64,000 nt of DNA from an uncultured Gammaproteobacteria bacterium. GTDB taxonomy: Bacteria; Patescibacteriota; Patescibacteriia; Magasanikbacterales; UBA922. The translations under genes were made by a program, and so were the position numbers. Below are positions 3,174 through 55,034 of the stretch, one piece after another. The stretch spans positions 83,697 through 147,696 of the forward strand of contig CAZTEU010000002.1 of NCBI GenBank assembly GCA_964612105.1, given 5' to 3'. A model generated the notes under the pieces. The model saw only the letters and a list, made by a program, of their open reading frames with translations. It was not told the DNA's origin and searched no databases. Every line of letters starts with the position of its first letter. Position 1 is the stretch's first letter.

Positions 3174-3972
3174 ACAACTATTGAGTAGCTCCCCTATTGA
3201 CTCTTTGGATGCGGAATTACTCATTGCAAATATACTCGCGAAAACACGCGAGTTTATAGTTTCACACCCAGAGTTAGTTGTTGGTTTTTTTGATAGATTA
3301 AAATATTATAGAGCTGTTTCAAAAAGAAAGAACAATACTCCTATTGCATACCTACTGGGATACAAGGAGTTTTATGGACTAGATTTTATTGTAAACAAAA
3401 ATACTCTCGTACCAAGACCAGAAACTGAATTGCTTGTTGAGGAAGCACTGAAGCATATTACAAACGCAGATGTTCTTATAGATATAGGTACTGGTAGCGG
3501 CTGTATCCCTATCTCTATACTCAAAAACACAAAAAACAATATTAACACTGTTGCGGTAGATATATCCCAATCTGCAATTAATGTTGCAAGGAAAAATGCA
3601 AAAAAGCATGGAGTAAATATAGAATTCTTGCGAGGTAGTCTACTGACCCCAATAAAGAAAGAGATCTTACTGGGTAAGAAAGTAGTAATTACAGCCAATC
3701 TCCCATATCTTACAGAATCACAATATAATAATGAGATGTCCATAAGAAAAGAGCCAAAGGATGCACTTGTTGCAGAGAAAAAAGGACTTGCCTTATATAT
3801 GGAATTAGTTGATCAGATAAAGGATATAGACAGTAAAATTATAGCTATTTTTGAGATAGATCCAAGCCAGGAAAGTCTATTGAAGAGCTATATTAAACAT
3901 AAGTTGGGTATAGAGGACATAAAAACAGTTGAAGATCTTGCTGGCCATACAAGATTGGTGATATTTGGCTAA
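3142..3972 (+). CDS. prmC: release-factor glutamine N5-methyltransferase PrmC/HemK
   Basis: SAM-MTase motifs ([10 protein letters not shown]) and NPPY-type motif (TANLPYL); operon position after prfA. Confidence 0.85.
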
Positions 3973-4015
3973 AAAAGCATTGAAACTTGACAAATAAGCC
4001 AATTTATGATATTGT
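3965..4015 (+). promoter_or_regulatory. promoter module: GGCTAAAAAAGC element + TTGACA-N17-TATTGT
   Basis: ttGGCTAAAAAAGC at 3965-3979; TTGACA 3987-3992; 17-bp spacer; TATTGT 4010-4015. Same architecture recurs at 10.7, 16.9, 39.1 and 44.3 kb. Confidence 0.45.
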
Positions 4016-4032
4016 CCTTAGTCTCTCATATG

Positions 4033-4074
4033 GTTAGTGGCGCATGTCTATAAGCGTAGACATGCCCCACTAAC
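4033..4074 (+). promoter_or_regulatory. 18-bp stem hairpin (1 mismatch, loop taagcg) in the 5' leader of the island-0 gene
   Basis: gttagtggcgcatgtcta / tagacatgccccactaac seen directly; lies between the predicted TSS (~4022) and the RBS GGAGGT at ~4114. Confidence 0.5.
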
Positions 4075-4125
4075 GATGATGAGAACCCGCCAAACGAGTC
4101 ATATCTCGTAGGCACGGAGGTCAAC

Positions 4126-4650
4126 ATGGCTACCAAGAATGGAGTCCCTGATAGCAAGACTGAGGTCCTGTGGTTCAGGACTGGAGACCCAGAAAAGAAA
4201 GGTCTTATACTGCTTGGAAACTTGAAGTTGCTTGTCAACTTCGAGCCAGATGAGCCGGTGGTACCAGCCTGGTTTGGAAGCGCCGAACGTATACACCAAC
4301 TTATAACTCAGCTCAGAGGGGCTGGTGTAAAGGTTGAGACGTGCGCTCTGAAGACGTTCCTGAAAAGAACGAACTCAACCAAAATCAATCTCCGCATCCC
4401 TGACAAGAACACCATCTACTGCTACACAGTGCTCAGAAGTATGGTGAATGACATCAAACGTCATGCGGATAGAATCCGCATTCTCAACGATAACTTGTCA
4501 GAAGAAACGCTTTTGGAGCGAGCTCTAACAAGTTGGCTTTCCGAATGTTCTGGAATTGAGTTCTCCCACCTCGAAAGAGTTTGGAATGCATCTCCAGCTG
4601 AAGTACGTCGTGCGCTCGGACCAACAGCCAAAAACATGTTCAAGAGTTGA
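4126..4650 (+). CDS. hypothetical protein on a GC-richer (~48%) insert; no recognisable domain
   Basis: 174-aa ORF with canonical SD (GGAGGTcaacATG), unlike neighbouring host genes; composition differs from flanks. Confidence 0.5.
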   Translation: MATKNGVPDSKTEVLWFRTGDPEKKGLILLGNLKLLVNFEPDEPVVPAWFGSAERIHQLITQLRGAGVKVETCALKTFLKRTNSTKINLRIPDKNTIYCYTVLRSMVNDIKRHADRIRILNDNLSEETLLERALTSWLSECSGIEFSHLERVWNASPAEVRRALGPTAKNMFKS

Positions 4651-4751
4651 TCAGATTGCTCACATGCTGAGCGAAAAGATCACGGACAACCTGCGGGAGC
4701 TTCGCGCCCCCGCTCGTCCACCTGATAATAAAACTTGTTTTCAGATGGATA

Positions 4752-4782
4752 TAAAAAACTCCCATTAGGGAGTTTTTTGTTT
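4752..4782. terminator. bidirectional Rho-independent terminator
   Basis: aaaaaaCTCCCattaGGGAGttttttg lies between convergent genes 4126..4650(+) and 4781..5842(-). Confidence 0.6.
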
Positions 4783-5842
4783 ACTTATATTCCACTTCCC
4801 CTCTTGCATTTATCACCTCTATCCATATCTTTCCTGGCTTGATTGGAATTTCTTCACCTTCGCTGTTCAGCCATTTTGTTTTTTGTTCTCGTCCAATCTT
4901 CATCCAAGTTCCGTCTGCTCTGTGTCCATCACGGAATACTTGCACAGGACCTGCTCCCTGTGTCTGAATATGCAATCTACCAATTGCATCTACAACAGTG
5001 GAGGTTACGTGTTGGACAATTATAGTATCTGCAACAATTGGTCTCAAATCTTTGTCTACATGACGCACTCCACCTTGGTAACGGTCATACTGCAAGGTGC
5101 TTGTGTTAAATTTCCAGTTAGCCTGATACGTTTCCCCTAAAAACGTGACTGTAATATCTTCTGTGCAACCATCCTCACACGCATCCATTTCATTGTACGC
5201 CCATGATTCGGTTGTTGTTGTACCTCTACCCTCACCATAATCTTCCCATGCTTTATTCCAATGATCTTCGGAAGTATATACATTATGAGGAGCATACCTG
5301 TCTTTGCTTCTCCAATAATACCAACCTCTATAGAATTCGTTTAAATCAAAAAGGTCTATTTGTTTAATCTTTTCGAGCGCTTCCGGTGAGCCACCTACAT
5401 GCATATACATTGGATCATTATATTCGCTGACCCAGTCTAAGTAGTAAGGACGAGCACTGCGTACAGGCCCTACTTTTTTTACCTCAGCATCTTTTGGAAA
5501 GAGTAATAGGAATCTGGAATAATTAGCTTCTACCGGTGCCTCATATACAACAGAAGCATCTACAAGCCCAGACTGAGGGCGTGCATCTGGATGGTTTTCT
5601 ACCATAATAGCTACTACATTAGAAACAGTCTCATCTTCATTGTCTACACATTCTCCATTAAGAGTTTTGCGGAAATCACACTTAATTTTACTCTTTCCAT
5701 CAAAAAAATCTGTGACGAAAGAACCGTCACGAACAGGTTGTGTTATAAACTGATACCCCAGCCAAGCAATCAGACCAAATGCTACAAAAAAAACCACAAC
5801 AGCAAGGGAGTATACATATTTTGATTGTTGTTTCTTGTTCAT
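4781..5842 (-). CDS. membrane-anchored DUF3048 (YerB-like) family protein
   Basis: N-terminal TM anchor; VVAIMVENHPDARPQSGLVDASVVYEAPVEANYSRFLLLF resembles the DUF3048 N-domain signature. Confidence 0.6.
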   Translation of the reverse strand: MNKKQQSKYVYSLAVVVFFVAFGLIAWLGYQFITQPVRDGSFVTDFFDGKSKIKCDFRKTLNGECVDNEDETVSNVVAIMVENHPDARPQSGLVDASVVYEAPVEANYSRFLLLFPKDAEVKKVGPVRSARPYYLDWVSEYNDPMYMHVGGSPEALEKIKQIDLFDLNEFYRGWYYWRSKDRYAPHNVYTSEDHWNKAWEDYGEGRGTTTTESWAYNEMDACEDGCTEDITVTFLGETYQANWKFNTSTLQYDRYQGGVRHVDKDLRPIVADTIIVQHVTSTVVDAIGRLHIQTQGAGPVQVFRDGHRADGTWMKIGREQKTKWLNSEGEEIPIKPGKIWIEVINARGEVEYK

Positions 5843-5901
5843 AGGCTATATTGTATCGTAAAAACACAAATTAAAAAACCCCACATACGTGGGGCTTTAT
5901 T

Positions 5902-7433: not shown

Positions 7434-7450
7434 AAATAAAGATAAACAAA

Positions 7451-7483
7451 AACACCCAGTATTTACTGGGTAGTTTTTTATTT
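7451..7483 (+). terminator. Rho-independent terminator
   Basis: aCCCAGTAtttACTGGGTag followed by ttttttatttcc. Confidence 0.6.
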
Positions 7484-7638
7484 CCACCGCTGACAACAGC
7501 CAGTCAAGACGTATCGCGGGGAGAGAGTGTAAGTACAAGTACTCACAGACCGTGATATGTTTTGGGTCTGGCTGATGCCAAGGGTGGTGGTTATTATAAT
7601 CCTCACTCAACCCTTTTGTAAAGATTGAGAATGGGATG

Positions 7639-7712
7639 CCGGAATCGTTTTATCGATTCCGGCTTAGCCCTCCTAATTTTCAAAGAACATAGTGATAACG
7701 CGCAGTCATCAC
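7639..7712. repeat. island-I repeat element copy 1: perfect 9-bp-stem palindrome CCGGAATCG-ttttat-CGATTCCGG + conserved 3' flank (cctcctaattttcaaagaacat...gataacgcgcagtcatcac)
   Basis: Direct repeat of 9047-9121 (about 85% identity over ~75 bp); ends 29 bp from the stop of the minus-strand gene 7741..8835. Confidence 0.6.
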
Positions 7713-7740
7713 TTTCTGGAACCGCGAGAGGGTGCTGAGA

Positions 7741-8835
7741 CTAGCACGCCTCGGAGTACACGCCGTTGAGAGTGTCCAGCAACACCTGCATGGTGTTGTT
7801 GTCGATCACGCCCAGCGTACGAGCGCTCTTGATCGTGCACTCGACCAACTCGTGCACATCCTCCCACCGGTGCGGTCGGTGAAGCCCCATCTCCGTGGCC
7901 AGCGCGTTGTGCTCGTAGCGACGCAGATTGGCAATCTCATTGATCTGCGCACGGAGCGGGTTGGCCCACCGGTCGTACATCGCCTGGAACTGCAGGTTGA
8001 ACACCCGCGCCTCGTCCACCTCGAACGCGATGTTCGAGCGGAGATTCCAGTAGAACTCCTCGGTGGTCTCGAAGCTACGATAGTCGTTGCCAACGAAGCG
8101 TCGGGCGATCCCCCGCAGCTTGGAGAAGCTGGAGTTGGGGTGACACCGGCGGATGTCGGTGAACACGGCCCAGAGGTTGCGCGCCTTGCGCAGGTTCTCT
8201 TCCTCATGGAGACGCTGGGCCTTGGCCAACGCCTCGGCATCGGCCTTCTTCTTCTGGATGACCGCGACGTACAGTGCTGACTTGGAGACGTAGGTCTCCG
8301 GGCTGTCGATGCCGTTCGCCTTGGCGAACTGGTTCGCATCGTAGCGGAGCCAATTCTTGCGCTCCGTCACCGTCCAGCGACGCTGGGTATCTACGACCAC
8401 CTGAGCCATGTCGATCCACAGCCAGTTGGCGTGGCTACGCAGTGCGTAGCCGACGCCCTTGCCGTTGCGGGTCATCTTGGCGATGATCCCCGTGATGAGA
8501 CGCTTAGCCTCGGAAAGATCCGCATCCAGGATGGATGCGTTGTGCCGGAGAACCTCCGGCACACCCTTGCCCACGTTGAGGAGATCGCTGATCTCCCCCT
8601 CGACGAGATGGCGCGCCTCGGAGAGGTTGATCCCCATCCGACAGGCGCGCTTCATCTGCCCGCCCGTGAGCTCGGTGCCCTCGATCAGTGCCGTCTCGAT
8701 ACCGTCGAGTTCGGCCTTGACCAGCTCCTCACGGAGGTCGGCCACAGCATCGGCACCGCCGAGCTTCTTGGTGATCACGGCGTCCGGGGACTTCCCCGCA
8801 CGCAACATCTTCTTCACCTTCTTGCGAATGCTCAT
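7741..8835 (-). CDS. hypothetical protein, GC-rich island I gene A; no recognisable domain
   Basis: ~60% GC, GC3-rich codons; start set at MSIRKKVKK, preceded by GGAGGG 5 nt upstream. The longer ORF-track start lacks an RBS. Confidence 0.55.
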   Translation of the reverse strand: MSIRKKVKKMLRAGKSPDAVITKKLGGADAVADLREELVKAELDGIETALIEGTELTGGQMKRACRMGINLSEARHLVEGEISDLLNVGKGVPEVLRHNASILDADLSEAKRLITGIIAKMTRNGKGVGYALRSHANWLWIDMAQVVVDTQRRWTVTERKNWLRYDANQFAKANGIDSPETYVSKSALYVAVIQKKKADAEALAKAQRLHEEENLRKARNLWAVFTDIRRCHPNSSFSKLRGIARRFVGNDYRSFETTEEFYWNLRSNIAFEVDEARVFNLQFQAMYDRWANPLRAQINEIANLRRYEHNALATEMGLHRPHRWEDVHELVECTIKSARTLGVIDNNTMQVLLDTLNGVYSEAC

Positions 8836-9046
8836 AACTCCCTCCTGTGGGAATAGTACGTGGTGTTGCCAAACACCTGTCCTTTTCATCCGTCAATGGA
8901 TGACCACCAGCGCGAGCAGCGCCGATAGAGACTTCAATTGTATAGAACTGCATAGGTCGTTGGCACGACCGCAGAGGAGCAAACACTCGCCCTCACTGCC
9001 CCCCGCACCCACCTGTTATGATAGGTACGAGAAACATTGTAGGACC

Positions 9047-9121
9047 CCGGAATCGTTTTATCGATTCCGGGTTTCCCTCCTAGTTTTCAAAGAACATTTC
9101 CGAGTAACGCATGGTCACTAC
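9047..9121. repeat. island-I repeat element copy 2 (same palindrome CCGGAATCG-ttttat-CGATTCCGG + conserved flank)
   Basis: Ends 4 bp from the stop of the minus-strand gene 9125..10234. Confidence 0.6.
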
Positions 9122-9124
9122 AGA

Positions 9125-10234
9125 TCACTTCTTGAGACAGGCGCCAGCACCAGTGCAGACCTCATTAGACCCGCAGTCTTTGTTGGTCTGACATTCATAG
9201 CACCAGTACACGGCACGAGGCTTCGTGGCCAGGAGCTTTCCATCCTCGGACTCGACGGCGACGCCCGAACCACAGTAGGGCTTCTCCGAGGGACAACCGA
9301 CCTCTATCGACTTGTCCGATGTGACCGCCGTGCATTGCTGACAGAGTCCGTAGCTCCCGTTGTGCATAATGCAATACTCGCCCCATGACGAGCCCTTGCA
9401 GTCCAAATCAGTCTCGCAAAGACCACTGTTGATGCACGACTTGTCCTGCTCGTGCACACACCCCTTCTTGGGGAGACAGTAGTCGAACGTGCAGAACTTG
9501 CCATCGTCACAGTCGTAGTTGGACTTGCAGACTTCGACGTTCTTGCAATTGCCGGACTTCTTGTCGCACGAGTCAATGGTGTTGGGGTTGCTGTCGTCGC
9601 AGTCCTTGGTACCATCCGACTGGCATTTTTGCTTGAAGAAGTTGCAGAACTCCATCGTGCAGACATTGCCGTCGTCACACGGCAACTTGATGCCTTTCTC
9701 CTGCAGTTCACCAATGCACTTTCCACCAAAGCAGAAGGAGACGTTGGTGCAGAGGTTGCCGTCGTCACAGCTGTCTCCGTCAACCATGGACGCGAAGTTT
9801 TGACAGCCACTGGCTTCGTCACAGGAGTCGGCGGTGCACTCGTTGTTGTCGTGACAATCGACCTGCGAGTGAACACACTCATTGTTGTCGCAGGAGTCGA
9901 TGGTGCAGGAGTTGTAATCCTCGCACTCCTCGTTGGTCTTGCACTCGACCGACGGCTCAATCTCCACCTCGCCTTCTTTCGTCGGCGTGGCGGAAACCGG
10001 AGTCTCCACCGGAACCTCGACCATCTCTTTCTCGATGATGACCGTCTCGACCTCCACCTCCACGGTCTCCGTGTTGGTGATGGTTTTGGTCTCGCCCTCG
10101 ACGATCACGACCTGCGCCGAACTGTCATCGCCAACGCCAGTGTAGTCACTGGTGCAGGCAACGGAATTCAGGATGCCGAGGATGAACGCCAGCGCGAACA
10201 GTTTGCCCAAGTGGGCCTTGATCAGATTCAACAT
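9125..10234 (-). CDS. secreted lipoprotein with Cys-rich repeats (C-T-x-D-x-C / CDDGN motifs, Myxococcus-type cysteine-rich repeat-like)
   Basis: Signal peptide + lipobox (ILNSVAC); repeated ...NxCTxDSCD... and CDDGNxCT units, many Cys. Start at second Met (AAGGAG RBS 6 nt upstream). GC-rich. Confidence 0.6.
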   Translation of the reverse strand: MLNLIKAHLGKLFALAFILGILNSVACTSDYTGVGDDSSAQVVIVEGETKTITNTETVEVEVETVIIEKEMVEVPVETPVSATPTKEGEVEIEPSVECKTNEECEDYNSCTIDSCDNNECVHSQVDCHDNNECTADSCDEASGCQNFASMVDGDSCDDGNLCTNVSFCFGGKCIGELQEKGIKLPCDDGNVCTMEFCNFFKQKCQSDGTKDCDDSNPNTIDSCDKKSGNCKNVEVCKSNYDCDDGKFCTFDYCLPKKGCVHEQDKSCINSGLCETDLDCKGSSWGEYCIMHNGSYGLCQQCTAVTSDKSIEVGCPSEKPYCGSGVAVESEDGKLLATKPRAVYWCYECQTNKDCGSNEVCTGAGACLKK

Positions 10235-10332
10235 GACTAACTCCTTCACCCGACTTGCGGGTGTTCGGTTTGTGGCGCAACTGCCATTCGGAATCCGTTT
10301 GGACGCCTAGGGTTGTCAGTCGCACCACGCGC

Positions 10333-10380
10333 TTCCTTCCCATTGCATATCCAGATTGTGGACATACAGTGGGAAGGAAG
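10333..10380. repeat. 11-bp perfect inverted repeat CTTCCTTCCCA-N26-TGGGAAGGAAG at the GC/AT transition on the right edge of island I
   Basis: Seen directly; lies 100-150 bp upstream of the island gene 9125..10234 on its coding strand. Confidence 0.4.
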
Positions 10381-10493
10381 AAGTAGATTGTAAAGATTGT
10401 TATCTATTGAGTTAGACTCAACAGGCAAGAGCGTAGGAGTGTTGGGCAGGTAATATATTTTCTCCCTCAGCCTATCGCTCTTTTCTGTTGGGT

Positions 10494-10522
10494 CAAACAA
10501 AAACCCTCTCGGGCGAGAGGGG
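10494..10522 (-). terminator. Rho-independent terminator (minus strand)
   Basis: Minus strand CCCTCTCGCCCGAGAGGG followed by TTTTTGTTTG. Confidence 0.55.
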
Positions 10523-10633
10523 TTGCGGGTTTTGGGCAGATAAAATCTACCTATATAACTCGACATTCCTCTCTCCAGAAATGTTTGGTCAATTGTAATG
10601 GGCCTATTACCAAGGCATTCTCTTTATTTTTAA
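10494..10633 (-). ncRNA. candidate ~140-nt small RNA from promoter to terminator (unclassified); alternatively a leader of island I transcripts
   Basis: Bounded by the promoter at 10640-10669 and the terminator at 10494-10522. The ORF 10246..10566 crossing the terminator is not credible. Confidence 0.25.
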
Positions 10634-10639
10634 CAACAA

Positions 10640-10742
10640 AGTATATCATAAAAAGAGGGTTTTGTCAAGACCCTAGCTCAATTAAAGTAATAAAAAATGG
10701 CTCAACTAAGCCAAATTATGTAATGTGATGGCTAATATTAGC
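10640..10742 (-). promoter_or_regulatory. promoter module (minus strand): palindromes GGCTAATATTAGCC and GGCTCAACTAAGCC upstream of TTGACA-N17-TATACT
   Basis: Minus strand TTGACAaaaccctctttttatgaTATACT; palindromic sites at 10699-10712 and 10729-10742. Confidence 0.5.
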
Positions 10743-11871: not shown

Positions 11872-12873
11872 CTATAAGTCAGTAATAGGCGTAACTTCTA
11901 TACTGTCTGAAGAAGGAGTTTCTATAATACTTTCTGGCTTCTTGAAACCAGGAACAACCTCTAGTGCACGTGCTGGTAGGAATTGTGTCTTGTCAAAAAC
12001 ATCAACGACCGGGTATATATTTATACTTCCTACGCTCAAGCCTTGTGTTGTGTTGCGTATATCTACACTATGGGTTTCTCCTGGACCAAATTCTTCAAGT
12101 ACAGTTTTCATTATTCCAACTGTTTGTGTCCCATTTTTTAGTTCTATATAAAGATCAATGTATTTGTATCCGTATACTGAGTTATTACTTACATCAAAAG
12201 TAATCTTATTTGATGGGATATTATCAGCTACACTGGAAGCTGTAAAGGAAACCTTTTCAAGAGAAAAATTTAACCTCTCTGCGACATAAGAGACAGGATT
12301 AAATACATAGTGAGGACTTATTCGGTTCCATCTAATATATACAAGTTCAAATCGCACATTTGTTGGAAAACCTTCCTCTCTATCAAATCCAATTATAGAA
12401 AGAGGTCTATTCTCCCCGGGAAGCAACTTAACTAAAGCCTCATCTGTTTCTCCCCCATCAAAAGTATACTTATACGTTACCTCAGCTGTATACCTCTGGT
12501 TAGGGTTTGTAACATTAGCAACAAAATCAAAACGATTATTTGCTGGAACAAAAACATCAATTTCCTGTATTTCCAGAGCCTGTGCTTGGTAGAGTGGTTT
12601 TGTCCTATTATAGTTCTGGAATGTTCCGACAACCTGCTGTTCCATGGCCAGATCTTCTGTAATACCAAATACCAAATAATTACCCCAAGCAAAGAGTCCA
12701 TATAGATTGAACCCTACTGCAAATAAAATCAAAGCACCGGTTCCTATTTGTCCCAGAAGTTGACGATTACGCACATACCATTCGCTCAGACGGAGCTGTT
12801 TAGTGGTGTATTCGCCAGTTGGATCAACATACCGGTCCACATTAATTGTTGGTTTCTTTTGTGCTTCTTCCAT
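11872..12873 (-). CDS. hypothetical membrane-anchored protein
   Basis: Single N-terminal TM then a large soluble domain; no family recognised. Confidence 0.4.
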   Translation of the reverse strand: MEEAQKKPTINVDRYVDPTGEYTTKQLRLSEWYVRNRQLLGQIGTGALILFAVGFNLYGLFAWGNYLVFGITEDLAMEQQVVGTFQNYNRTKPLYQAQALEIQEIDVFVPANNRFDFVANVTNPNQRYTAEVTYKYTFDGGETDEALVKLLPGENRPLSIIGFDREEGFPTNVRFELVYIRWNRISPHYVFNPVSYVAERLNFSLEKVSFTASSVADNIPSNKITFDVSNNSVYGYKYIDLYIELKNGTQTVGIMKTVLEEFGPGETHSVDIRNTTQGLSVGSINIYPVVDVFDKTQFLPARALEVVPGFKKPESIIETPSSDSIEVTPITDL

Positions 12874-12954
12874 ATAACAGGCAATTGTGTACTAATATTA
12901 TACACTATAATGGCGAGGTTTTCTATGCTTGTAATCTGTACGCAATTATGATAG

Positions 12955-15057
<2,103 letters not shown>

Positions 15058-15589: not shown

Positions 15590-15617
15590 AAAAAACCCCG
15601 TTTGGGGATTTTTTATT
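15590..15617. terminator. bidirectional Rho-independent terminator
   Basis: aaaaaaCCCCGtttGGGGattttttatt. Confidence 0.6.
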
Positions 15618-15762
15618 CTCTCAAGACTCCTAGTGTTAAGAAACTTGAGGGATTGGACTTTTGATGAGAGTCCAAACTCCGAGCGAGGCGTAGTGTGGTT
15701 TGTCGTCTAGCAACATCACCACAAACTTCGTCTGTTCGGCCTCGCTTGGTTGGAGCGAGGTC

Positions 15763-16710
15763 TTAGAGCATTGGATCAGTCGCCTTCTTGGGACGATCGA
15801 TCCAGTCACTCATGCTGATCACACGACCAGCCTGAGCGGACTTGACACCCTTGGTCTTCGTCAGGTGCTTGGCGATGAATTTCAGAATCTCATCCTTGGT
15901 GAAGGTGCTGTCACCGAACGGGGCAAAGACCGAGGTCTTCTTCCCGATGGTGAACTTGGCGTCCTTCTCGTACTCGAGGTACAGGGCAAAGATGGGATCC
16001 TTTTTGGTCTCGTAGGTGTTGAAGACCCCGGGCGTGTTCTCCATGAAGCGGTCCGTCCAACCACCGTCATCCGACGGGATTGGTGGTCTGAAATGGACAA
16101 CGAGCCTATGATCACGGACGACAGCCAGCCAGTGGTGCGTGCCGGTCTTCTTGGAGACCATCTTGCCGACACCAGCCGGTCGGATGTAGTTGGACCAATA
16201 AGGGAAGTCCCGCACGAAACGCTCTTCCAGACTCGGCATGACCTCACAGAGGATTCTCTCCTCCTGCTCGCACCAGAACTGGGTCGCCCACAGCAGGTTC
16301 TTGTAGGTTCCCAACTCGCGCTTGCAGACGCCGAGCTTGTGATCAGCATCGCGGAGATCCTTCAGGTCTCTCTGCTGAGCCTCTTTGTCCTTCTTCTGTT
16401 TCTCTTCCGCCTGAGCAACAGGCCAACAGCTTGCCAGGAAGATACCAACTTCCCGCTTGAGCTCGGTGGCGTCCTTCTTGACCACCTTGTCACGGCGGAA
16501 GCTCGCGTACGAACCACGGTACTCGCTGATCAGCGAATACGCCCTGTTCTTCCGCTGAGTATCACCAGACTTGTCCGCACACTCGACCGCCTCTTTGAGG
16601 AGGTTGTCGACCACGCTGTACGTGACCTCTTCCTCTTCCCTCTCAGTCTGGCAACCCAGGACGGACATGCTGGTCGCAACGAGCACGAGACACACAAACA
16701 AATTCTTCAT
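15763..16710 (-). CDS. lipoprotein of unknown function (GC-rich island II)
   Basis: Start at MKNLFVCLVLVATSMSVLGCQ (signal peptide + lipobox) with GGGAG RBS; ~58% GC. The antisense ORF 15700..16737 is judged spurious. Confidence 0.55.
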   Translation of the reverse strand: MKNLFVCLVLVATSMSVLGCQTEREEEEVTYSVVDNLLKEAVECADKSGDTQRKNRAYSLISEYRGSYASFRRDKVVKKDATELKREVGIFLASCWPVAQAEEKQKKDKEAQQRDLKDLRDADHKLGVCKRELGTYKNLLWATQFWCEQEERILCEVMPSLEERFVRDFPYWSNYIRPAGVGKMVSKKTGTHHWLAVVRDHRLVVHFRPPIPSDDGGWTDRFMENTPGVFNTYETKKDPIFALYLEYEKDAKFTIGKKTSVFAPFGDSTFTKDEILKFIAKHLTKTKGVKSAQAGRVISMSDWIDRPKKATDPML

Positions 16711-16816
16711 CTCAATCTCCCGCTCCCGTTGCATTAGGGAGCTCAGTTTCGATACGCGTAGGACCTCCCCACGCACACCAGATAAAGCTCCATAAATACA
16801 CTATTATGGACGTACA

Positions 16817-16845
16817 ACTATAGCATATTTATAGTGTTTTGTCAA
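16817..16845 (-). promoter_or_regulatory. promoter (minus strand) TTGACA-N17-TATAGT driving the island II lipoprotein gene
   Basis: RC of 16817-16845 reads TTGACAaaacactataaatatgcTATAGT; ~100-nt leader. Confidence 0.45.
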
Positions 16846-16852
16846 GACCTTA

Positions 16853-39243: not shown

Positions 39244-39348
39244 TGCGTATCTGTGAAAAAAGTCGACCTCCTCGCCCTACGGTGGGCCATGGGGGTATTC
39301 GTGCCAACATACGGCCTGTAATCTAATCAGGCCACGGGAGAAGAAGAT

Positions 39349-40269
39349 ATGGGTAGCAACGGAAGAAACTCGGGACAGATCCTGTTCATGGACTGGAATT
39401 TCACTGAAGACAAGTCCGAGAGTCAGCGCTGGGAGCGACTCCTCCAGAGCTGCGACTACATCGGTCGCTGGAAGGAAGGTGTCACACCCGACCACTTCGG
39501 CGGGAAGACCCTCGCGAAGATCAGCAACCTGTTCGTTGAGGCGATGAAGATTGTCGCACCCAAACTGGAGTACAAAACCTCACGGCCGGCGCTCTACAAG
39601 ATCCTGTACCGTCACCCGAGACGGGTCGTCATCCGCGTGGACAAGAGCCTCTCAATTCCGCGACGTGTGGAGAATGGTCAGGATGTGTTCGGGTCGGACT
39701 GCGGTCTGAACATGGCCACGCGCCTGAAGCTCGTGAACGGCAATTTCAACAAGTCGCAGGGTATCCTGCGGACTGTGCTGAACAACGTCGCCAACGAGAC
39801 CACGACCAACGTCTCCGAAGCCTGCATCGACATGCTGTGGACCATCTCGCGCCTGGTCAATGGGCTGGGCATCCGCACCGACAAGGGCATGCAGTACGAG
39901 GGAGAGCTCATCTCGCCATGGCACATCGTTGTCGAGCGAGGGACCATGTCTCCCAAGAAGATGCTCGAACTCGAGCAGCAGAATGCCATCGAAGAGGCCG
40001 CTGCGAAGAAGGGGGCGGACCTGACTCAGTCTGAGAAGCATTCGGCGCTCTGCCGATACAAGGCCAAAGAGCGCGATGCTGGTCATGTGCGCCACGCCAA
40101 GATCCTCAAAGACTGGGATCTCGACGACTGGAAGGCGGAAGCGCGAGACTGCGGTGTGCGGTACGAAAATGATGTCGAGCTCGACACCCTCTCCACTGCG
40201 GTTCGCGCCAACGTGGAAGCCCGTGTCGGCAAGGCCTGGAAGCGCCTGAAGAAGTCCACGTCCAAGTAG
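39349..40269 (+). CDS. hypothetical protein (GC-rich island III); no recognisable domain
   Basis: 306 aa, ~58% GC, RBS GGGAGAAG upstream. Confidence 0.5.
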   Translation: MGSNGRNSGQILFMDWNFTEDKSESQRWERLLQSCDYIGRWKEGVTPDHFGGKTLAKISNLFVEAMKIVAPKLEYKTSRPALYKILYRHPRRVVIRVDKSLSIPRRVENGQDVFGSDCGLNMATRLKLVNGNFNKSQGILRTVLNNVANETTTNVSEACIDMLWTISRLVNGLGIRTDKGMQYEGELISPWHIVVERGTMSPKKMLELEQQNAIEEAAAKKGADLTQSEKHSALCRYKAKERDAGHVRHAKILKDWDLDDWKAEARDCGVRYENDVELDTLSTAVRANVEARVGKAWKRLKKSTSK

Positions 40270-40432
40270 TACCAACGTCTGCAACCACGCAACGTCGAGG
40301 TACATAGCAACAATCTCGTAGAGTCTACAACTCAAAAGTAGAAGCTACACAATCCCCGCCCGTTCATAAAATAAGGAGAGAACGGCGGGCACACATTGTG
40401 CATGAACACTCGTGCAAAGTGTGTACACAACA

Positions 40433-50300: not shown

Positions 50301-50413
50301 TAAAAAACATACGGATTGTCTTCCGGACGTTCATTTACGGATTTTTCAAAAGTTTTATTCTTTTCCCAAAACTCTAAAATTTCTTTCTCATTTTTATCCG
50401 CTTGATAAGGCAT
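47387..50413 (-). CDS. ileS: isoleucyl-tRNA synthetase
   Basis: HIGH-region PPFATGLPHYGH, WDCHGLPIE, KMSKR, 1008 aa with editing domain. Confidence 0.9.
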   Translation of the reverse strand: MPYQADKNEKEILEFWEKNKTFEKSVNERPEDNPYVFYDGPPFATGLPHYGHIVASLMKDVVPRYWTMQGHRVERKWGWDCHGLPIENIVEKELDLHGRQEIVDYGVDKFNSACHKTVLKYAEEWKKTINRMGRWVDMENDYKTMDIEYMESVWWVFKQLWDKDLVYEGKKAMHICPRCVTPLSNFEVTQGYKDIKDISVTAKFKLNKDFDGIDGSVHALAWTTTPWTLPGNALLAVNPDITYVIAKFFVRQDEKGEPVYENYLLAKEIFANWNSSRKDYPEVTNYWPPFNLEGLTNEQEKELMTTPYKLAEMKGKDLVGTKYEPLFPYFAKTKNAFHIVSGDFVTTEEGTGVVHIAPAFGEDDYQVGLEEGTELIQHVKMDGTFAEEVTDFAGKKVKPKENPQEADIEIIKWLAGNNKIFSKKKYLHSYPHCWRCDTPLLNYATNSWFVRVSEIRDKLVKNNEKNTRWVPSHIKEKRFGTWLENARDWAVSRNRFWGAPLPAWKSEDGDVICVGSVKELEELIGKPVKDLHKHVVDKLVINKDGKKYHRVAEVLDCWFESGSMPYGQMHYPFENKEKFEKGFPAEFIAEGQDQTRGWFYTLHVLATALTMGEERSIPTGKMVPAFSNVIVNGIVLAEDGKKMSKRLQNYPDPMKVLETYGADAMRFYLVTSPVMHAEGLNFSESGVREVYNKVVNTLWNVLSFYEMFAKESKQPKKKSDNVLDKWIMARLNQLVKETTDRMNNYELAYASRPIQDFISDLSQWYVRRSRDRFKGDNEADKQFALATLHDVLLTLSKVMAPFTPFVSEKIYQSVKQYGSGDYKESVHLEMWPQKQKKVDEKILDEMEKTRKAVELGMSLRKEVGIRVRQPLATCAVSGVKNIKDYEQLISEELNVKEVVSSGNKKWDSREDGEIKVSMDVNITEDLKEEGLARELIRAINQMRKEQKLTINDSGTVVWDSKDKIVESVFDKHREEIAKSTRSEDIKKGKGGVEVELPGAKVALKVQKN

Positions 50414-50465
50414 AATGTTATAAATCTCATTATTATTTAGTGTTAACTACTATAAGGAAAAGAGG

Positions 50466-50504
50466 GGGCTGTGTCAACAAAATTACAAGACGCCCACCTT
50501 TCGA
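50466..50504 (-). terminator. terminator-like GC-rich hairpin at the end of island IV (minus strand)
   Basis: GACGCCCACctttcgaGTGGGCGTC; on the minus strand followed by UUGUAAUUUUGUU. Confidence 0.4.
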
Positions 50505-50543
50505 GTGGGCGTCGTCGTACTCCTACATTCCCCAAGCTTTCAC

Positions 50544-50966
50544 TCAAGGATATCGTTCTTTCATGTACTGCTCGAGAAGTGCCCGGCGCGCATGTTCTGG
50601 AACCCAACGCAGAGCTCCATCCAAACCCATGAAAAAACTGGTCATGCGTGAATCGAGAGTGTCTGCACCGTCGTCTCTGTGGCCAGAGAACCCACCTTCT
50701 GCCTCCTTGCAGAGAAGCTCGTCCATACGACTTGCCAAAAAATCCTTGCTGAATTGGAAAGTCTCGACAGTCCCATCCGTCTCTCTGCGCTCGATAATCT
50801 TGCGCTTCAACAGCTCCTCAAAATCGCCATCCTTTACACTAACTCCGCCAAATTCGCGGAAGTCGATATCCAGGAAAGCCCTCTTGGTGAACGGGTGCCA
50901 TTTCAAGAACACCATCATCGTCTGAACGACACCATATAGAGGACCCCCTTCTTTCACTCTGCACAT
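50544..50966 (-). CDS. hypothetical protein (island IV)
   Basis: 140 aa, GC-rich, no family recognised. Confidence 0.45.
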   Translation of the reverse strand: MCRVKEGGPLYGVVQTMMVFLKWHPFTKRAFLDIDFREFGGVSVKDGDFEELLKRKIIERRETDGTVETFQFSKDFLASRMDELLCKEAEGGFSGHRDDGADTLDSRMTSFFMGLDGALRWVPEHARRALLEQYMKERYP

Positions 50967-51000
50967 GTCACCCTCCTTTTTGGGTTACCTCTCGTTATGA

Positions 51001-51849
51001 TTATGACAAGGCGTTGTTGAGAAGCTCACCAACACCACCTGCACCAGGAACGATGTAGTGGTTGTCGGTCAGACCTCGTTCTTCGTCTGGGTGTGCACCC
51101 GGAATGCTGTTGAGTGCCTTTTCGGATGACAGTCCACGATCCAGGCGCAGAGCCCAAATCTCCATCTTGGGAAACCGCTTGGTCACGTGCCGGATGAACT
51201 CCGGAGTGACCATGAGGTTCATGGAAATCATCTTCGCGGGCATGCCCGGAACGGCGTCTCCAGCGTACAGCTCTGCAGCCTTGCACAGCGAGTGGCCTGT
51301 GGCTCCCATTGGATCTGGGAAGATGACGATGTGCTCGTCCACATTACCACAAGGCTTGAAGCCCGACAGTCCTGCACCAGTGACACGCTCAGACTTCCCC
51401 TCAACAGTCCTCTGCATCATGAGGTGATCCTGGTGAAGACCAGCAGGCAGGAGGATTTCCCCAAGCGCCTCGAAACAAACACCCGCTGGCGACGTGCCCG
51501 CACGAGCGACGTTCACAACCGTGACTTTTGTATCGTAGTCAACCACAGGCGCATGAAACTGCGCTTGCGCTGGATACTGCCTCACCATGCGAGTTGTCGC
51601 ACGTCTGTGGAAGCGTGGAAATGACCTGGAAACCACCGTGTGAATCATCCGGCGGTAAAGCTGTTTGACCAGCTTGTTCATCCGAGGGTGTAGACACTCC
51701 TCCGACCCGAACTCCGCCAGCCAGGTGAAGATCATGGGGTCCCAGGCCAAGTGCACCTTGGAACCGTAGAAGTGATGCACCTCGTCGGCACGAACCGCCG
51801 TCCCTTCTTGGTGTTTTTCCGTGTAAATGATATCGAAATGAGCAGGCAT
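51001..51849 (-). CDS. uracil phosphoribosyltransferase-like (PRTase) protein with N-terminal extension
   Basis: PRPP-binding-loop analogue IVIFPDPMGATGHSL (cf. ALIVDPMLATGGS) and C-terminal YIVPGAGGVGELL (cf. YIIPGLGDAGD). Start at MPAHF with AAGGAG RBS. Confidence 0.6.
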   Translation of the reverse strand: MPAHFDIIYTEKHQEGTAVRADEVHHFYGSKVHLAWDPMIFTWLAEFGSEECLHPRMNKLVKQLYRRMIHTVVSRSFPRFHRRATTRMVRQYPAQAQFHAPVVDYDTKVTVVNVARAGTSPAGVCFEALGEILLPAGLHQDHLMMQRTVEGKSERVTGAGLSGFKPCGNVDEHIVIFPDPMGATGHSLCKAAELYAGDAVPGMPAKMISMNLMVTPEFIRHVTKRFPKMEIWALRLDRGLSSEKALNSIPGAHPDEERGLTDNHYIVPGAGGVGELLNNALS

Positions 51850-51991
51850 GTTCTTTCTCCTTTTTGCACTCTTGTATTGGCGCAAATTATGAACAGCTTA
51901 CACTAATATCAGCATAAAAGCAAGAAGCACCTGCGCTTATCGACGAATCGACTTGCGCTAGGTGCTCTTTACTCCTTTTTTTTGTTCTTCG

Positions 51992-53020
51992 CTAGCCAGG
52001 TATGCCGAGTGGTAGCACAGCCTGTCCGTTGCTGTTGTCAGCAGTAGGACTTCCCCTCTCTGCTCGCATGCGCTCCAGCTCCGGTCCGATCAACCACTCC
52101 AGCTCTTCCCTGATTGTTGGGTAGAATCTGCTGTCAGGATTGGTCAGAATTGCTCCACGAAGGTGCATCCGTGAGCTCCTGTCTGGAACCTCGTCTGGCA
52201 GATGCCCCCGAACCAACTCAGCAATGATCTTCGTGGCATTGCTGGCGTTCTGGGTCATGTTTCTCACGACTCTTGCATTGTCGACGTGCTCACCATCCTT
52301 CCAAGCATCCAGGTCTGTGACCAGTGCCATGTGCCCATGAATGAAACCAAGCTCCGCAGCGAGACAGGCTTCCTGTGCCCAGTTCATACCGACAACATCC
52401 ACCTTTATGTCACTCACTTCAAGAATGCCTCCATTCATGTTCTTGTACAGAAGTGACTCCGCCTTTGTGGAGAACTGTGGACCATCGATGCAGATATGTG
52501 CGGATGGTGTTGTGTGTCGCCAGAAGAGCGTCTTGTCTTCCATGCCGAGAGCACGTTGACCGGCTCTGATCAGCGCGATGCGGAATTCCGGGTCCACCGG
52601 CGTTGCTGTGCTCACATGTCCCGCAAGACCTCTCCTCCAGAAGAAGGTCTTCTGACGATTGCTGGTCCTGTTGATGAAGTGCGTTGGAAGCACGATCCTG
52701 CACTCTTCGATTGCTTCTTGGAGCGAACCCACCGCGTTCACCGAGAGTGTGTGTGTCGCGTGCAACATATCGAGTACATGGAAATGCGCCCTGGACTGGA
52801 TCAGCGAAGGCGGGTCTGTATGATCCTCCCCGTGACGATTCACGAAGATAATATTCTTCCCTGCCATCTCGCCAACCACCACGTGTACTCCAGGCGGACC
52901 CTCGTCCAGCACTTCGTAGTACGGACTCTTGTAGTAACGACTCTCGAGAATCGTCATACCTTCGATCATGGCGAGTCCTGTGCCGCCTATCACTCCCAAC
53001 ACCGTTGGTTGTGTTTTCAT
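51992..53020 (-). CDS. 5'-methylthioadenosine / purine nucleoside phosphorylase (PNP/MTAP family)
   Basis: VLGVIGGTGL N-terminus, NIIFVNRHG, VVGMNWAQEACLAAELGFIHGHMALVTDLDAW typical of MTAP. Start at MKTQPT with GGAGGG RBS. Confidence 0.7.
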   Translation of the reverse strand: MKTQPTVLGVIGGTGLAMIEGMTILESRYYKSPYYEVLDEGPPGVHVVVGEMAGKNIIFVNRHGEDHTDPPSLIQSRAHFHVLDMLHATHTLSVNAVGSLQEAIEECRIVLPTHFINRTSNRQKTFFWRRGLAGHVSTATPVDPEFRIALIRAGQRALGMEDKTLFWRHTTPSAHICIDGPQFSTKAESLLYKNMNGGILEVSDIKVDVVGMNWAQEACLAAELGFIHGHMALVTDLDAWKDGEHVDNARVVRNMTQNASNATKIIAELVRGHLPDEVPDRSSRMHLRGAILTNPDSRFYPTIREELEWLIGPELERMRAERGSPTADNSNGQAVLPLGIPG

Positions 53021-53088
53021 CTCGTCCCTCCATGGCGCCTTGGCGCCTGTTGTGTCCTTTCGGATTTTATCACCGCAGGACATGAGCG

Positions 53089-54207
53089 TCAAACCTTTTC
53101 CTTAAGGTCTGGTTCGATCAGTCTGTAATAAATCTCCATCGCTTTTGCAAGAACATCTGGAGGGACAGCTTTTGACAACACACCGATTTGATCCAGTGCA
53201 TAGTCGAGAAGCACCTCTTCCTTACTAAGCTTATCATACCAAGACCTTGGAACCTTTGCTGTCCAGACGTTCAGATACGCTCTTACCGTTGAGTCGTCTC
53301 GCACCCCACGAAGCCATCCGCTTTCTCTCATTCTGTCCACGAACACACGGTAGGCCTTCTTGTTCTTGAAGGTTCTTCCAGGACCCACCATTTTTCTTGT
53401 GAACTTAGAAGTGTGGAATGGAATTCCTCCTGACAATTGGAACAGCTCTTGTCTAGTTGCATTTGCAGCTTCCATCGTACCAGACATCTTTGTTGTGGCC
53501 CCTTCTATGGCCTCCGAAGGTTCTATGCATAATTCTGATGTAAAGATGGCGAGAGTAACTTGGAGCTCCCACAAGAGCATCCCTTCGTCTGCAGGACATG
53601 CAGCCCGAAGTTCGTCAGGAAGGTTCTTATCTACCCAGGAGTACAGGTAACCAACCTCTCCTGTGTGCGTATGGCGAATTCCTTTGAGCCATCCCCTTCT
53701 ACAGGCCCGTGATAGAAACGAACGAAAGGACTGGTCTGTTGAGAAGTGGGCGTCCAGCCCATTACCAACCATTTCATAGGACATGTCCTTGGCGTAAAAC
53801 GGACGAGCTTGAGATTTTACACGCAAACGGATCATGCGCGTAAGATGTTCTCGAGCCTTCCCACTCATAATTCTAGTCCTTGGTGTTGGCACGGACCCAA
53901 TATCTTCTACGACCTGTTTTGCCCAGGCACTTCTACCCCTCTTGAACCTGTACTGATAGTCCGACCAACCACCGTTTGCCCTTAATGACGCGTGCCTGCG
54001 CTCCAAAAGACGTCCTGGATGATCTTCTACGATTGAGTTCTTGTTGATCTCGCGGACGATATCTCCAACTGATGTTATGGAAGGTACCTTATGGTCTCTT
54101 GCTGCGAGACTAACGTCTGGAATATAGAACCAGCCCAAGCCAAAGCGGTAGTATATCCACCGCATGAGCGTCAAACCTTCTGACATGTTACTATCTTGGC
54201 ATGTCAT
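53089..54207 (-). CDS. hypothetical protein (island IV), no recognisable domain
   Basis: 372 aa, GGAGGTG RBS 4 nt upstream of the ATG. Confidence 0.5.
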   Translation of the reverse strand: MTCQDSNMSEGLTLMRWIYYRFGLGWFYIPDVSLAARDHKVPSITSVGDIVREINKNSIVEDHPGRLLERRHASLRANGGWSDYQYRFKRGRSAWAKQVVEDIGSVPTPRTRIMSGKAREHLTRMIRLRVKSQARPFYAKDMSYEMVGNGLDAHFSTDQSFRSFLSRACRRGWLKGIRHTHTGEVGYLYSWVDKNLPDELRAACPADEGMLLWELQVTLAIFTSELCIEPSEAIEGATTKMSGTMEAANATRQELFQLSGGIPFHTSKFTRKMVGPGRTFKNKKAYRVFVDRMRESGWLRGVRDDSTVRAYLNVWTAKVPRSWYDKLSKEEVLLDYALDQIGVLSKAVPPDVLAKAMEIYYRLIEPDLKEKV

Positions 54208-54334
54208 TACTCACCTCCGTGCGATGAATTGATGTAAACTCTTACGAGCCACACTTGGACGCTATCACTTTTCCTTATAAAATTCAAGACCTCTGCCGTG
54301 TACTCACGCATATGCGCTTTCCTGCGACAGAGGT

Positions 54335-54799
54335 CTAGTCCTTGTTTGTCCAGCGATATCTACCGCGACTCACTCTCTCCAGAAGTTCGTGTTGGATAAG
54401 GGTTTCCAACATACGGTATCGTGCTGTCCTATTGCGAGAAGGTCTCCAATCCTCACGCTTGGAAAACTCAGCCAAGTCGTCCGTTGTAAACTCCGGACCG
54501 GTAAGCTCCCAAAGTTGCTCTGCTCCGTAGACAGACTTCATCCTCCCCCATTTCTCAGTCCCGTAGACCCATTCGTAGCTGAAGGTATGCCTTGGTCTTG
54601 GGTGCTTTGTGCTCTTGTGCACAGTCTGTCGTATCCACCCTTTTTCCACAAACCTGTTGAGTATGGTTACTGCGAAAGTTGCGGTAGGTAGTGGCGAATT
54701 ATGACCTGTAAGGTCGTTCACGTGTGCGAACTTGAACTCGTCGTTCGGGATTTGGCCACGCAACCAATCCCGGAGCTCTGTGTCTCTTTCTGGTTGCAT
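54335..54799 (-). CDS. hypothetical protein (island IV)
   Basis: 154 aa, GGAGGT RBS; C-terminal part has winged-helix-like character (weak). Confidence 0.45.
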   Translation of the reverse strand: MQPERDTELRDWLRGQIPNDEFKFAHVNDLTGHNSPLPTATFAVTILNRFVEKGWIRQTVHKSTKHPRPRHTFSYEWVYGTEKWGRMKSVYGAEQLWELTGPEFTTDDLAEFSKREDWRPSRNRTARYRMLETLIQHELLERVSRGRYRWTNKD

Positions 54800-54800
54800 A

Positions 54801-55034
54801 TTAACCTCCGCCTCTCTTCTGTGTCCTTAGGTCCTCGTGCAACATGTAGTGAGGCAGTCCTCTTTTCCTGCGTCCCGCCTTCTTGAGCACACCCAAGGCA
54901 ATGAGTCGGTCTACGGGTATACGAATCCCAGTGTTGCGAATCTCACTGACTGTGTATTTCCCATTCTGACCAAGATGCGCTTTGATTCTCATCACAGCCC
55001 GCTTCACAGGCTCTGGAAGTTCTGAAAGCTTCAT
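54801..55034 (-). CDS. small basic putative DNA-binding protein (HTH-like)
   Basis: 77 aa; TVSEIRNTGIRIPVDRLIALGVL resembles a helix-turn-helix; AGGAG RBS. Confidence 0.4.
   Translation of the reverse strand: MKLSELPEPVKRAVMRIKAHLGQNGKYTVSEIRNTGIRIPVDRLIALGVLKKAGRRKRGLPHYMLHEDLRTQKRGGG

Follow-up and report, generated by a model that had tools for sequence, protein, structure and literature searches.

In a 64,000-nt stretch of contig CAZTEU010000002.1 (hereafter the window), a GC-rich island at about 7445-10668, located next to rodA, carries two direct copies of a structured repeat, copy A and copy B, one behind each of its two genes. These repeats are best explained as copies of a cis-acting structured module in the scaffold of a lineage-specific GC-rich accessory operon, situated at the rodA-L25 site of a small clade of Magasanikbacteria-like bacteria of the candidate phyla radiation (CPR). 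The repeat recurs with its structure in related genomes, where its stems covary; it follows open reading frames (ORFs) and is restricted to this locus. We hypothesize, at about even confidence, that the repeats serve as an intercistronic and 3'-untranslated-region (3'-UTR) RNA module that governs the stability, processing or translation of the mRNA.

The window contains the perfect 24-nt palindrome CCGGAATCGTTTTATCGATTCCGG at exactly two places, 7639-7662 and 9047-9070, with 0 matches expected from shuffles even at up to 3 mismatches. The 22-nt flank motif CCTCCTAnTTTTCAAAGAACAT is likewise found twice, at 7669-7690 and 9076-9097, against 0.01 expected. The two direct copies described in a first-pass annotation, with their palindrome and conserved flank, are confirmed; the copies are indeed similar, but over the spans given there the identity is ~80% (60 of 73 ungapped columns, plus 3 gap columns) and not the ~85% originally stated. 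From hairpin 1 to just beyond hairpin 2, 65 of 86 positions are identical. The position of the copies shortly after the stop codons of minus-strand island genes also held: copy A begins 28 nt past the stop codon of the ORF at 7741-8835, and copy B 3 nt past that of the ORF at 9125-10234. The copies are direct repeats, not inverted ones, and lack flanking duplications. The repeat unit exceeds the span first described and, on the coding (minus) strand, comprises three hairpins, the second formed by the palindrome, with the 22-nt motif between the first and the second, so that the layout of the module is hairpin 1, UUCUUUGA..AGGAGGG, hairpin 2, AUCCCAU and hairpin 3. The parts of the two copies are as follows.

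7600..7714, minus strand: element copy A; covariance-model match at 7628-7714, 99.9 bits
7691-7713, minus strand: hairpin 1 of copy A, AGUGAUGAC/GUUAUCACU, loop UGCGC
7668-7690, minus strand: motif of copy A, AUGUUCUUUGAAAAUUAGGAGGG
7638-7663, minus strand: hairpin 2 of copy A, GCCGGAAUCG/CGAUUCCGGC
7630-7637, minus strand: segment AUCCCAUU of copy A, directly after hairpin 2
7606-7629, minus strand: hairpin 3 of copy A
about 9002..9123, minus strand: element copy B; covariance-model match at 9036-9123, 97.1 bits
9103-9119, minus strand: hairpin 1 of copy B, AGUGAC/GUUACU, loop CAUGC
9075-9097, minus strand: motif of copy B
9046-9071, minus strand: hairpin 2 of copy B
about 9002-9031, minus strand: hairpin 3 of copy B, weaker and G-U-rich

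The motif of the window copies has the consensus AUGUUCUUUGAAAAyUAGGAGGG, and their hairpin 2 the consensus g/cCCGGAAUCG-AUAAAA-CGAUUCCGGc/g, followed by AUCCCAUU or GUCCUACA. A mini-ORF in the window copies (MFFEN and a stop codon) was considered and rejected, as it is not kept in relatives.

The orthologous locus was compared in three relatives whose RodA is 76-77% identical to that of the window: L138 (OZ246405.1, a complete 1.23-Mb genome), L140 and L141. All three carry a GC-rich segment at the same site, between rodA and the Zn-ribbon/L25 genes. A fourth relative (RodA 71%) has a 430-aa ORF at the site, and in outgroups with RodA 64% identical the site is empty, being occupied by an AT-rich spacer of 72-160 bp. 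A covariance model of 16 pairs, seeded with copies A and B and the instance L140_1, was run over 160 kb (the 64-kb window and 96 kb of other loci); beyond its seeds it recovered L140_3 (E 0.02), L141 (E 0.03) and, weakly, L138 (E 1.3). The sole other match of the model in the window is the antisense image of the palindrome. The instances in the relatives are listed below.

L140 13640-13770: L140_1, hairpin 1 GUCGAC-UGCGC-GUCGAC with the same loop as copy A, motif CUCUUUGAUAAAAGGGAGGG, hairpin 2 CCGAGACGC/GCGUCUCGG, then AUCCCAUA and hairpin 3 CUGCGCCGCU/AGCGGCGCAG
L140 14036-14160: L140_2
L140 12383-12500: L140_3
L141 10520-10660: the L141 instance, its motif interrupted by an extra small hairpin
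L138 12748-12860: the L138 instance, with hairpins 2 and 3 and AGGAGGG clear, hairpin 1 not

Positional counterparts of copy A are the instances at L140 13640-13770, L138 12748-12860 and L141 10520-10660. The island of L140 keeps the gene order of the window (a short Cys-lipoprotein and a homologue of gene 1, the 7741-8835 ORF) and adds two extra small CxxC ORFs; three of its four ORFs clearly have a module behind them, and the first has only a degenerate version, L140_4. The cargo of L138 and of L141 is one unrelated K/R-rich ORF each. The module thus follows the last ORF in all three relatives, and internal ORFs as well in L140; the instances of the window and L140 begin 2-107 nt after stop codons and 70-200 nt ahead of the next start. 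Comparison of the islands by tblastx was too noisy owing to their composition.

Outside this locus the element was not detected. Neither a repeat scan nor the covariance model found a third copy in the window, as had been noted at first pass, and the model found none in the four other GC-rich islets of the window or in 59 kb of the three relatives outside the orthologous locus. The search for more copies and for an ORF-element periodicity, proposed as a check in the same annotation, thus gave instances at the orthologous loci of L140, L138 and L141 but not elsewhere in the 160 kb. Plasmid and phage collections gave no blastn match to the element. When the palindrome by itself was searched against 185k species genomes, more than 119 matches came up in unrelated phyla, all by chance and none with the flanking motif. 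Viral contigs, searched for the palindrome, for the motif and for two patterns of the 3' frame, likewise yielded only chance matches, such as L146 inside a GC-rich phage ORF. A metagenome scan with the 22-nt motif did not turn up the element again and returned just three contigs, AT-rich and phage-like.

These three independent metagenome contigs contain the sense-strand 22-mer ATGTTCTTTGAAAACTAGGAGG exactly: L134 at 5863-5884 (identical to L135), L136 at 18-39 and L137 at 595-616. L134 is phage-like in appearance. In L134 and L137 the 22-mer lies 6 nt before the start of a listed ORF, and in L136 an ATG stands at equal spacing, its ORF running past the contig end. Here the 22-mer is a putative ribosome-binding leader without hairpins, and its match to the window element could be partly chance. 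A further resemblance is seen within the window: the 3' region of an islet lipoprotein gene (15763-16710), at about 15624-15647 on the minus strand, holds GUUUCUUAACACUAGGAG, which resembles GUUCUUUGAAAACUAGGAG of the element. It lies just ahead of a terminator, has no hairpins and was missed by the covariance model.

RNA folding, which the first-pass annotation had proposed as a check, showed that all seven instances fold better than dinucleotide shuffles, with z of -5.9 for copy A, -4.1 for copy B and -2.4 to -6.1 for the five instances of the relatives. In 13 stems from the 7 instances, 105 of 105 positions pair (100 Watson-Crick and 5 G-U), as counted by script on hand-delimited arms. The stem sequences of the relatives' modules differ from those of the window: compared with copy A, 6-7 of the 9-10 pairs of hairpin 2 are changed on both sides in L140_1, L140_3, L138 and L141. 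Between the window copies, two pairs of hairpin 1 have changed on both sides with pairing kept, and the stem of copy A is longer by 3 bp on both arms.

The single-stranded portion of the module is conserved as well. AGGAGGG matches the real Shine-Dalgarno sequences (SDs) of the island ORFs, yet in both window copies no AUG, GUG or UUG lies within 15 nt of it; in relatives it appears as GGGAGGG, GGAGGA or GGGGGG. An anti-SD-like UUCUUU/CUCUUU precedes this SD-like sequence, and in several instances the two can pair.

The element forms part of a wider conserved frame. In all four genomes (the window and the three relatives), the order is a consensus promoter, a leader whose terminator hairpin covaries, the GC-rich ORFs, the element, a 3' domain of ~110 nt and a terminator. 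On the 5' side the following features were identified.

10400..10668, minus strand: conserved 5' frame, with promoter, leader, terminator-like hairpin and second stem block
10640-10668, minus strand: sigma70 promoter TTGACA-17-TATACT, just past the rodA terminators
10504-10521, minus strand: terminator-like hairpin with a U-tract, the latter present in 3 of 4 genomes
about 10400-10480, minus strand: second conserved stem block, shared with L138 only

Across the four genomes the promoter reads cTTGACAAAA-N-TGnTATACT, with 11 of 12 consensus matches and an extended -10. The leader of ~130 nt contains the invariant GGCCCaUUACAA and CUGGAGAGAGG; of its blocks, GGCCCaTTACAA is present in all four genomes and CTGGAGAGAGG is missing in L141. 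The terminator hairpin covaries, 5 of its 7 pairs showing double-sided changes. The segment at 10490-10668 (minus strand) is a candidate attenuator, riboswitch or small RNA (sRNA) governing read-through into the GC-rich ORFs, and this leader has no Rfam match. On the 3' side the frame comprises:

7445..7622, minus strand: conserved 3' frame, with a promoter-like site, a nested structure of ~110 nt and a terminator
7593-7622, minus strand: promoter-like TTTACA-18-TATAAT, 11/12 match, overlapping hairpin 3 of copy A
7516-7529, plus-strand coordinates: unpaired, CU-rich CACUCUCUCCCCGC within the 3' nested structure
7453-7472: bidirectional terminator that closes the island
L138 12862-13050, L140 14164-14310 and L141 10688-10880: counterparts of the 3' frame in the relatives

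RNAalifold predicts 30 pairs for the 3' structure across the four genomes, 7 of them compensatory, with an inner hairpin and the helices CACC.../GGUG, CAGCCAG/CUGGCUG and UAUC.CGG/CCG.GAUA. The sigma70-like promoter that overlaps hairpin 3 in the window and L140 points into this structure, which is a candidate small RNA, either independent or derived from the 3' UTR, whose C-rich seed is anti-SD-like. The leader block GGAGAGAGG (10568-10576, kept in 3 of 4 genomes) has 8-nt complementarity to CUCUCUCC in the unpaired 3' part (7516-7529), and L141 carries GGAAAGA and UCUUUCC instead, a possible compensatory pair. This complementarity hints at a possible interaction between the 5' and 3' ends of the transcript through GGAGAGAGG/CUCUCUCC; RNAduplex, applied to the whole 5' frame against the 3' frame, gave nothing better than shuffles and is uninformative on the 8-nt complementarity of GGAGAGAG and CUCUCUCC. 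Copy B and gene 1 are separated by a 210-nt spacer, which has no similarity to either frame that would mark it as a remnant. Judged from sequence comparison, copy A is probably ancestral and forms the first module in the conserved 3' frame, and the same comparison suggests that copy B arose inside the island by duplication or gene conversion. Copy A lies in a frame kept in four CPR genomes, two of which hold unrelated cargo, and is therefore a property of the recipient locus and not of a donor.

The proposal of an intercistronic/3'-UTR RNA module is based on the location within a transcription unit, the post-stop position, the compensatory changes, the AGGAGGG without a start codon, the presence of RNase J and the parallels with stabilizing SD (STAB-SD) sequences of Firmicutes. 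In Firmicutes, a STAB-SD, an SD without a start codon, binds 30S subunits and blocks RNase J1 (PMC4113751). The present element resembles the cases of Bacillus thuringiensis cry3A and B. subtilis hbs in having an SD-like AGGAGGG without a start codon in a genome with RNase J: a gene with the Lactamase_B, RNase_J_b_CASP and RNase_J_C domains lies on the same contig, and AGGAGGG is a non-initiating sequence with predicted complementarity to the 16S 3' end. According to PMC5737220 and PMC3868564, hbs and icaR mRNAs are controlled by pairing of SD-like and C-rich motifs between the 5' and 3' UTRs, and the CU-rich, anti-SD-like sequence in the 3' UTR and the GA-rich one in the 5' leader resemble this arrangement in Staphylococcus aureus icaR and in hbs. 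In contrast, the known STAB-SD cases are 5' UTRs of single genes in Firmicutes, whereas the module described here is intercistronic or 3'-terminal, has covarying hairpins and is repeated within one CPR operon.

In the proposed mechanism, the operon would be transcribed on the minus strand from the consensus promoter just downstream of rodA, with each ORF followed by the module, in which the stretch between hairpins 1 and 2 would be single-stranded or weakly paired. The hairpins in the polycistronic RNA may block 3'-to-5' exonucleases and mark processing points. The startless SD-like sequence could be a binding site for 30S subunits or for a partner, RNA or protein, and once occupied it would protect what lies downstream against RNase J, the 5'-to-3' exonuclease. 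As an outcome, stability and translation would be set for individual cistrons and for the structured 3' domain.

Several points weigh against this proposal. Action at the RNA level and the stabilizing or processing role are what we infer, and the STAB-SD analogy would have to extend from Firmicutes 5' UTRs to intercistronic CPR sites. The sense strand folds better in copies A and B, L140_3 and L138, the antisense strand in L140_1, L140_2 and L141; as the strand preference is inconsistent, the hairpins might instead act at the DNA level. The stems were called by hand, which biases towards pairing, and the sample is small, with four genomes and seven instances, among which the model match of L138 is weak, and L140_4 is degenerate. 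In addition, hairpins 2 and 3 coincide in part with promoter-like hexamers, and some of the conservation may be that of promoter DNA.

In one alternative, which we regard as unlikely, the repeats are mainly transcription signals in DNA. As internal promoters, copy B would drive gene 1 and copy A the structured 3' domain; alternatively or in addition, each copy would be a leaky terminator for the gene upstream. Besides the 11/12 site at 7593-7622 that overlaps copy A, a promoter-like TCGATA-17-TACAAT (9036-9064) overlaps copy B on the coding strand, TTGAAA-17-CATACT stands at the equivalent place in L140 (14164-14192), and TTGTAT-16-TATACT was found by eye in L141. However, the site on copy B is weak (9/12), L138 has no usable -10, and the hexamers fall in hairpin 3 and in the hairpin-2 loop, leaving the covariation of hairpins 1 and 2 and the SD-like motif unexplained. 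As to termination, the module resembles Rho-independent terminators in its GC-containing hairpins after genes and in the partly U-rich tail of hairpin 1 of copy A; this hairpin, with AUGUUCUUUG, was flagged as terminator-like and was the only one to pass a lenient terminator scan. It differs from them in that no U-tract follows hairpin 2 or hairpin 3, whereas the host's own genuine terminators are canonical, including the one after the whole island (7453-7472). An intrinsic terminator was accordingly rejected, since hairpin 2, as first described, lacks a U-tract and is followed by AUCCCAUU or GUCCUACA, and the relatives have no adjacent U-runs; in L140_1 the U-rich run lies ~12 nt from hairpin 1.

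It is rather unlikely that the repeats merely reflect a recent, functionless local duplication of a 3' flank, or gene conversion, with incidental hairpins. Only two copies exist, both within one 3-kb island, and their motif and hairpin 2 are nearly identical, whereas the L140 instances differ from one another; we attribute the near-identity of A and B to a recent duplication or gene conversion. An origin of this kind does not account for the three-hairpin layout and motif at the same position in four genomes, the compensatory stems and the significant folding, nor for the differences between A and B in hairpin 1, all of which preserve pairing.

A third alternative, which we consider distinctly unlikely, is that the repeats act at the DNA level, as the recombination joints of a cassette system other than an integron, in which units of ORF plus element are gained, lost or swapped inside a fixed expression platform made up of the promoter and the 5' frame. 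The recombinase would be encoded elsewhere, or homologous recombination between repeats would suffice, acting on hairpins in single-stranded DNA. The cassette-like periodicity seen in the first pass is real and extends to 3 of the 4 ORFs of L140: that island has the window gene order and two further small ORFs, both followed by an element of their own, and L138 and L141 hold unrelated cargo inside the same frame. As in integron cassette arrays with their attC sites, one structured element stands behind each ORF, in a single orientation and under one strong promoter, its structure is kept more than its sequence (the stems vary as those of attC sites do), and relatives vary in the number of ORF-plus-element units. 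Antisense or DNA folding is equally good. A direct repeat is also present: the 12-mer TTGTAAAGATTG occurs only twice in the 64 kb (7616-7627 and 10388-10399; 0.01 expected), once where the 5' frame meets the GC-rich cargo and once inside hairpin 3 of copy A, so that it brackets the cargo, at whose two borders alone it is found. In L138 and L141 a TCTTT-containing motif, read from the alignment, stands at the 5' junction as well.

The attC-like site suggested at first pass did not survive comparison. In all seven instances with their flanks, neither strand has the attC cores RYYYAAC (R'') and GTTRRRY (R') 40-150 nt apart, in agreement with the earlier failure to find them, although shuffles give 0.01-0.05 and this absence is not significant alone. 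An attC site is a long imperfect palindrome with extrahelical bases, and the module instead is a row of short hairpins, three or four of them, whose stems pair perfectly, together with a conserved purine motif, the terminal element being fused to a conserved 3' domain. The strong promoter of an integron is present, but IntI and attI are lacking in the window. No integrase, transposase or reverse transcriptase was found among the Pfam-scanned window ORFs (those of at least ~150 aa and selected shorter ones, plus a precomputed Pfam list for 1-18.8 kb), and no recombinase or HUH protein in the window or within +/-10 kb in the three relatives; the window is thus without an integrase, as originally noted, and a search for a nearby tyrosine or serine recombinase came out negative. 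Border repeats equivalent to TTGTAAAGATTG are absent from L138, L140 and L141. The fetched population contigs are all 99.8-100% identical, without structural variants or the polymorphism of integrons; variation in ORF-plus-element units or unrelated cargo appears between related species, at species-level divergence. Finally, the islands of the window and L140 look vertically inherited, with the same order and diverged proteins.

Dispersed repeats of this genome or of a GC-rich donor, of the repetitive extragenic palindromic (REP), bacterial interspersed mosaic element (BIME) or miniature inverted-repeat transposable element (MITE) type and moved by a REP-associated tyrosine transposase (RAYT) or another transposase, are very improbable: short palindromes do lie directly downstream of genes and are homogeneous within the genome, but only two copies occur in 64 kb, beyond which the element is confined to the orthologous locus of relatives, no RAYT or transposase is encoded in the window, no terminal inverted repeats with target-site duplication are present, the plasmid, phage, viral and genome scans gave no match with the flank, and the element belongs to a locus-specific conserved frame. 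The earlier suggestion of REP or terminator elements from a high-GC donor fails on the same grounds, with copy A in a frame shared by four related CPR genomes, two of them with unrelated cargo, and without dispersal. REP/BIME sequences and similar hairpins act as intercistronic stabilizers, as in E. coli malE-malF. The present module is like them in placing palindromes right after stop codons inside operons, where protection of the upstream RNA from 3' exonucleases is plausible, and unlike them in being locus-specific (2 copies per 64 kb) and a multi-hairpin composite with a conserved single-stranded motif. The template and variable repeats of a diversity-generating retroelement were also rejected: the window has no reverse transcriptase, both copies are non-coding, and substitutions are of all types. 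Rfam at the gathering threshold gave no matches in the window, L138, L140 or L141, and its E-value mode gave only chance-level ones. The repeat is best filed as a locus-specific new form of structured intercistronic/UTR RNA element.

The host background has 38% GC and contains the housekeeping genes rodA, gyrB, gyrA, L25, L1, RF-1, tRNA synthetases and ftsH. Named RodA homologues belong mostly to Candidatus Magasanikbacteria (58-62% identity), which places the host among the Patescibacteria (CPR) as a Magasanikbacteria-like member. GC in the island is 52-63%, and the third-position GC (GC3) of its ORFs is 0.78-0.86, against 0.21-0.29 in rodA, gyrB and L25, a strong signal that confirms the island reading frames. 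The protein of gene 1 is encoded on 16 public contigs, the longest of 391 kb, and the 11 loci retrieved match the window at 99.8-100% identity; the locus is thus not an assembly artefact. The two genes of the island are:

7741..8835, minus strand: island gene 1, 364 aa, predicted to be all-helical, GC3 0.86
9125..10234, minus strand: island gene 2, Cys-rich lipoprotein with Dicty_CTDC repeats (Pfam PF00526, E 6e-25)

Searches of 5.8 billion clustered proteins and 1.84 billion representatives returned for gene 1 only the protein itself; it has no Pfam or PHROG family, and its AF2 single-sequence model (pLDDT 42) was too poor for a fold search. Its homologue in L140 is an uncalled plus-strand ORF at 12533-13537, with 24% identity and E 6e-9. 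Gene 2 has a signal peptide and lipobox, as read from its translation; its best homologues are 30-44% identical, several of them named Myxococcota and one Magasanikbacteria, and a short homologue lies at the same position in L140 (11445-11777). A PHROGs scan of 10 island proteins gave no family. In this GC-rich DNA the public gene calls are long antisense ORFs, such as one of 262 aa opposite the lipoprotein gene (window 9452-10240, plus strand), found in several population contigs, and one of 588 aa in L140 (12467-14233, minus strand) opposite the gene-1 homologue. Because gene callers took the antisense ORFs and the real proteins are missing from the databases, gene 1 seems to be an absolute ORFan. 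In practice, such calls hide homologues and inflate ORFan counts.

Cargo ORFs of L138, L140 and L141 have GC3 of 0.89-0.94 irrespective of host GC, and GC3-rich ORFs overall range over 0.75-0.94, with hosts' GC3 at 0.15-0.54. Other GC-rich islets lie in the window at 3900-4800, 15600-16850, 39300-40400 and 50400-55100; their ORFs are mostly without a known family, the two measured having GC3 of 0.75 and 0.79. They stand behind consensus promoters, for example GGTCTTGACAAAAC...TATAGT at 16816-16852 (minus strand), which is akin to that of the rodA island, and at the same islet sites (e.g., secE-gyrB, or after DUF3048) relatives have different GC-rich ORFs or none. High GC3 is kept in the orthologous islands of diverged species, a persistence that fits neither recent nor ancient transfer in any simple way. 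A literature search on GC-rich islands in Magasanikbacteria found nothing relevant.

The architecture of GC3-rich ORFs, without known family except for the Cys-rich lipoprotein, behind consensus promoters at fixed intergenic sites is reproducible and so far undescribed in Magasanikbacteria-like CPR genomes. At the rodA site these ORFs sit within conserved, covarying RNA structures, which makes the architecture of more interest than the repeat. It is conceivable, though improbable, that the rodA-adjacent locus, and perhaps other islets, form an integrase-independent capture-and-expression platform of CPR bacteria, in which the module would be both a recombination joint and an RNA processing signal; a fixed promoter and structured 5' and 3' RNA domains may then enclose exchangeable, extremely GC3-rich units of foreign or fast-evolving ORFs, with the module marking the limits of each unit. 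Such a platform would be a new kind of cassette system and a route by which episymbionts acquire and express surface or effector genes, and recombination joints, if that is what the repeats are, would represent a new cassette mechanism. If the role in RNA stability or processing is true, the module would be among the first cis-regulatory RNA motifs defined in CPR bacteria and would offer a handle on the expression of compositionally foreign genes in this group.

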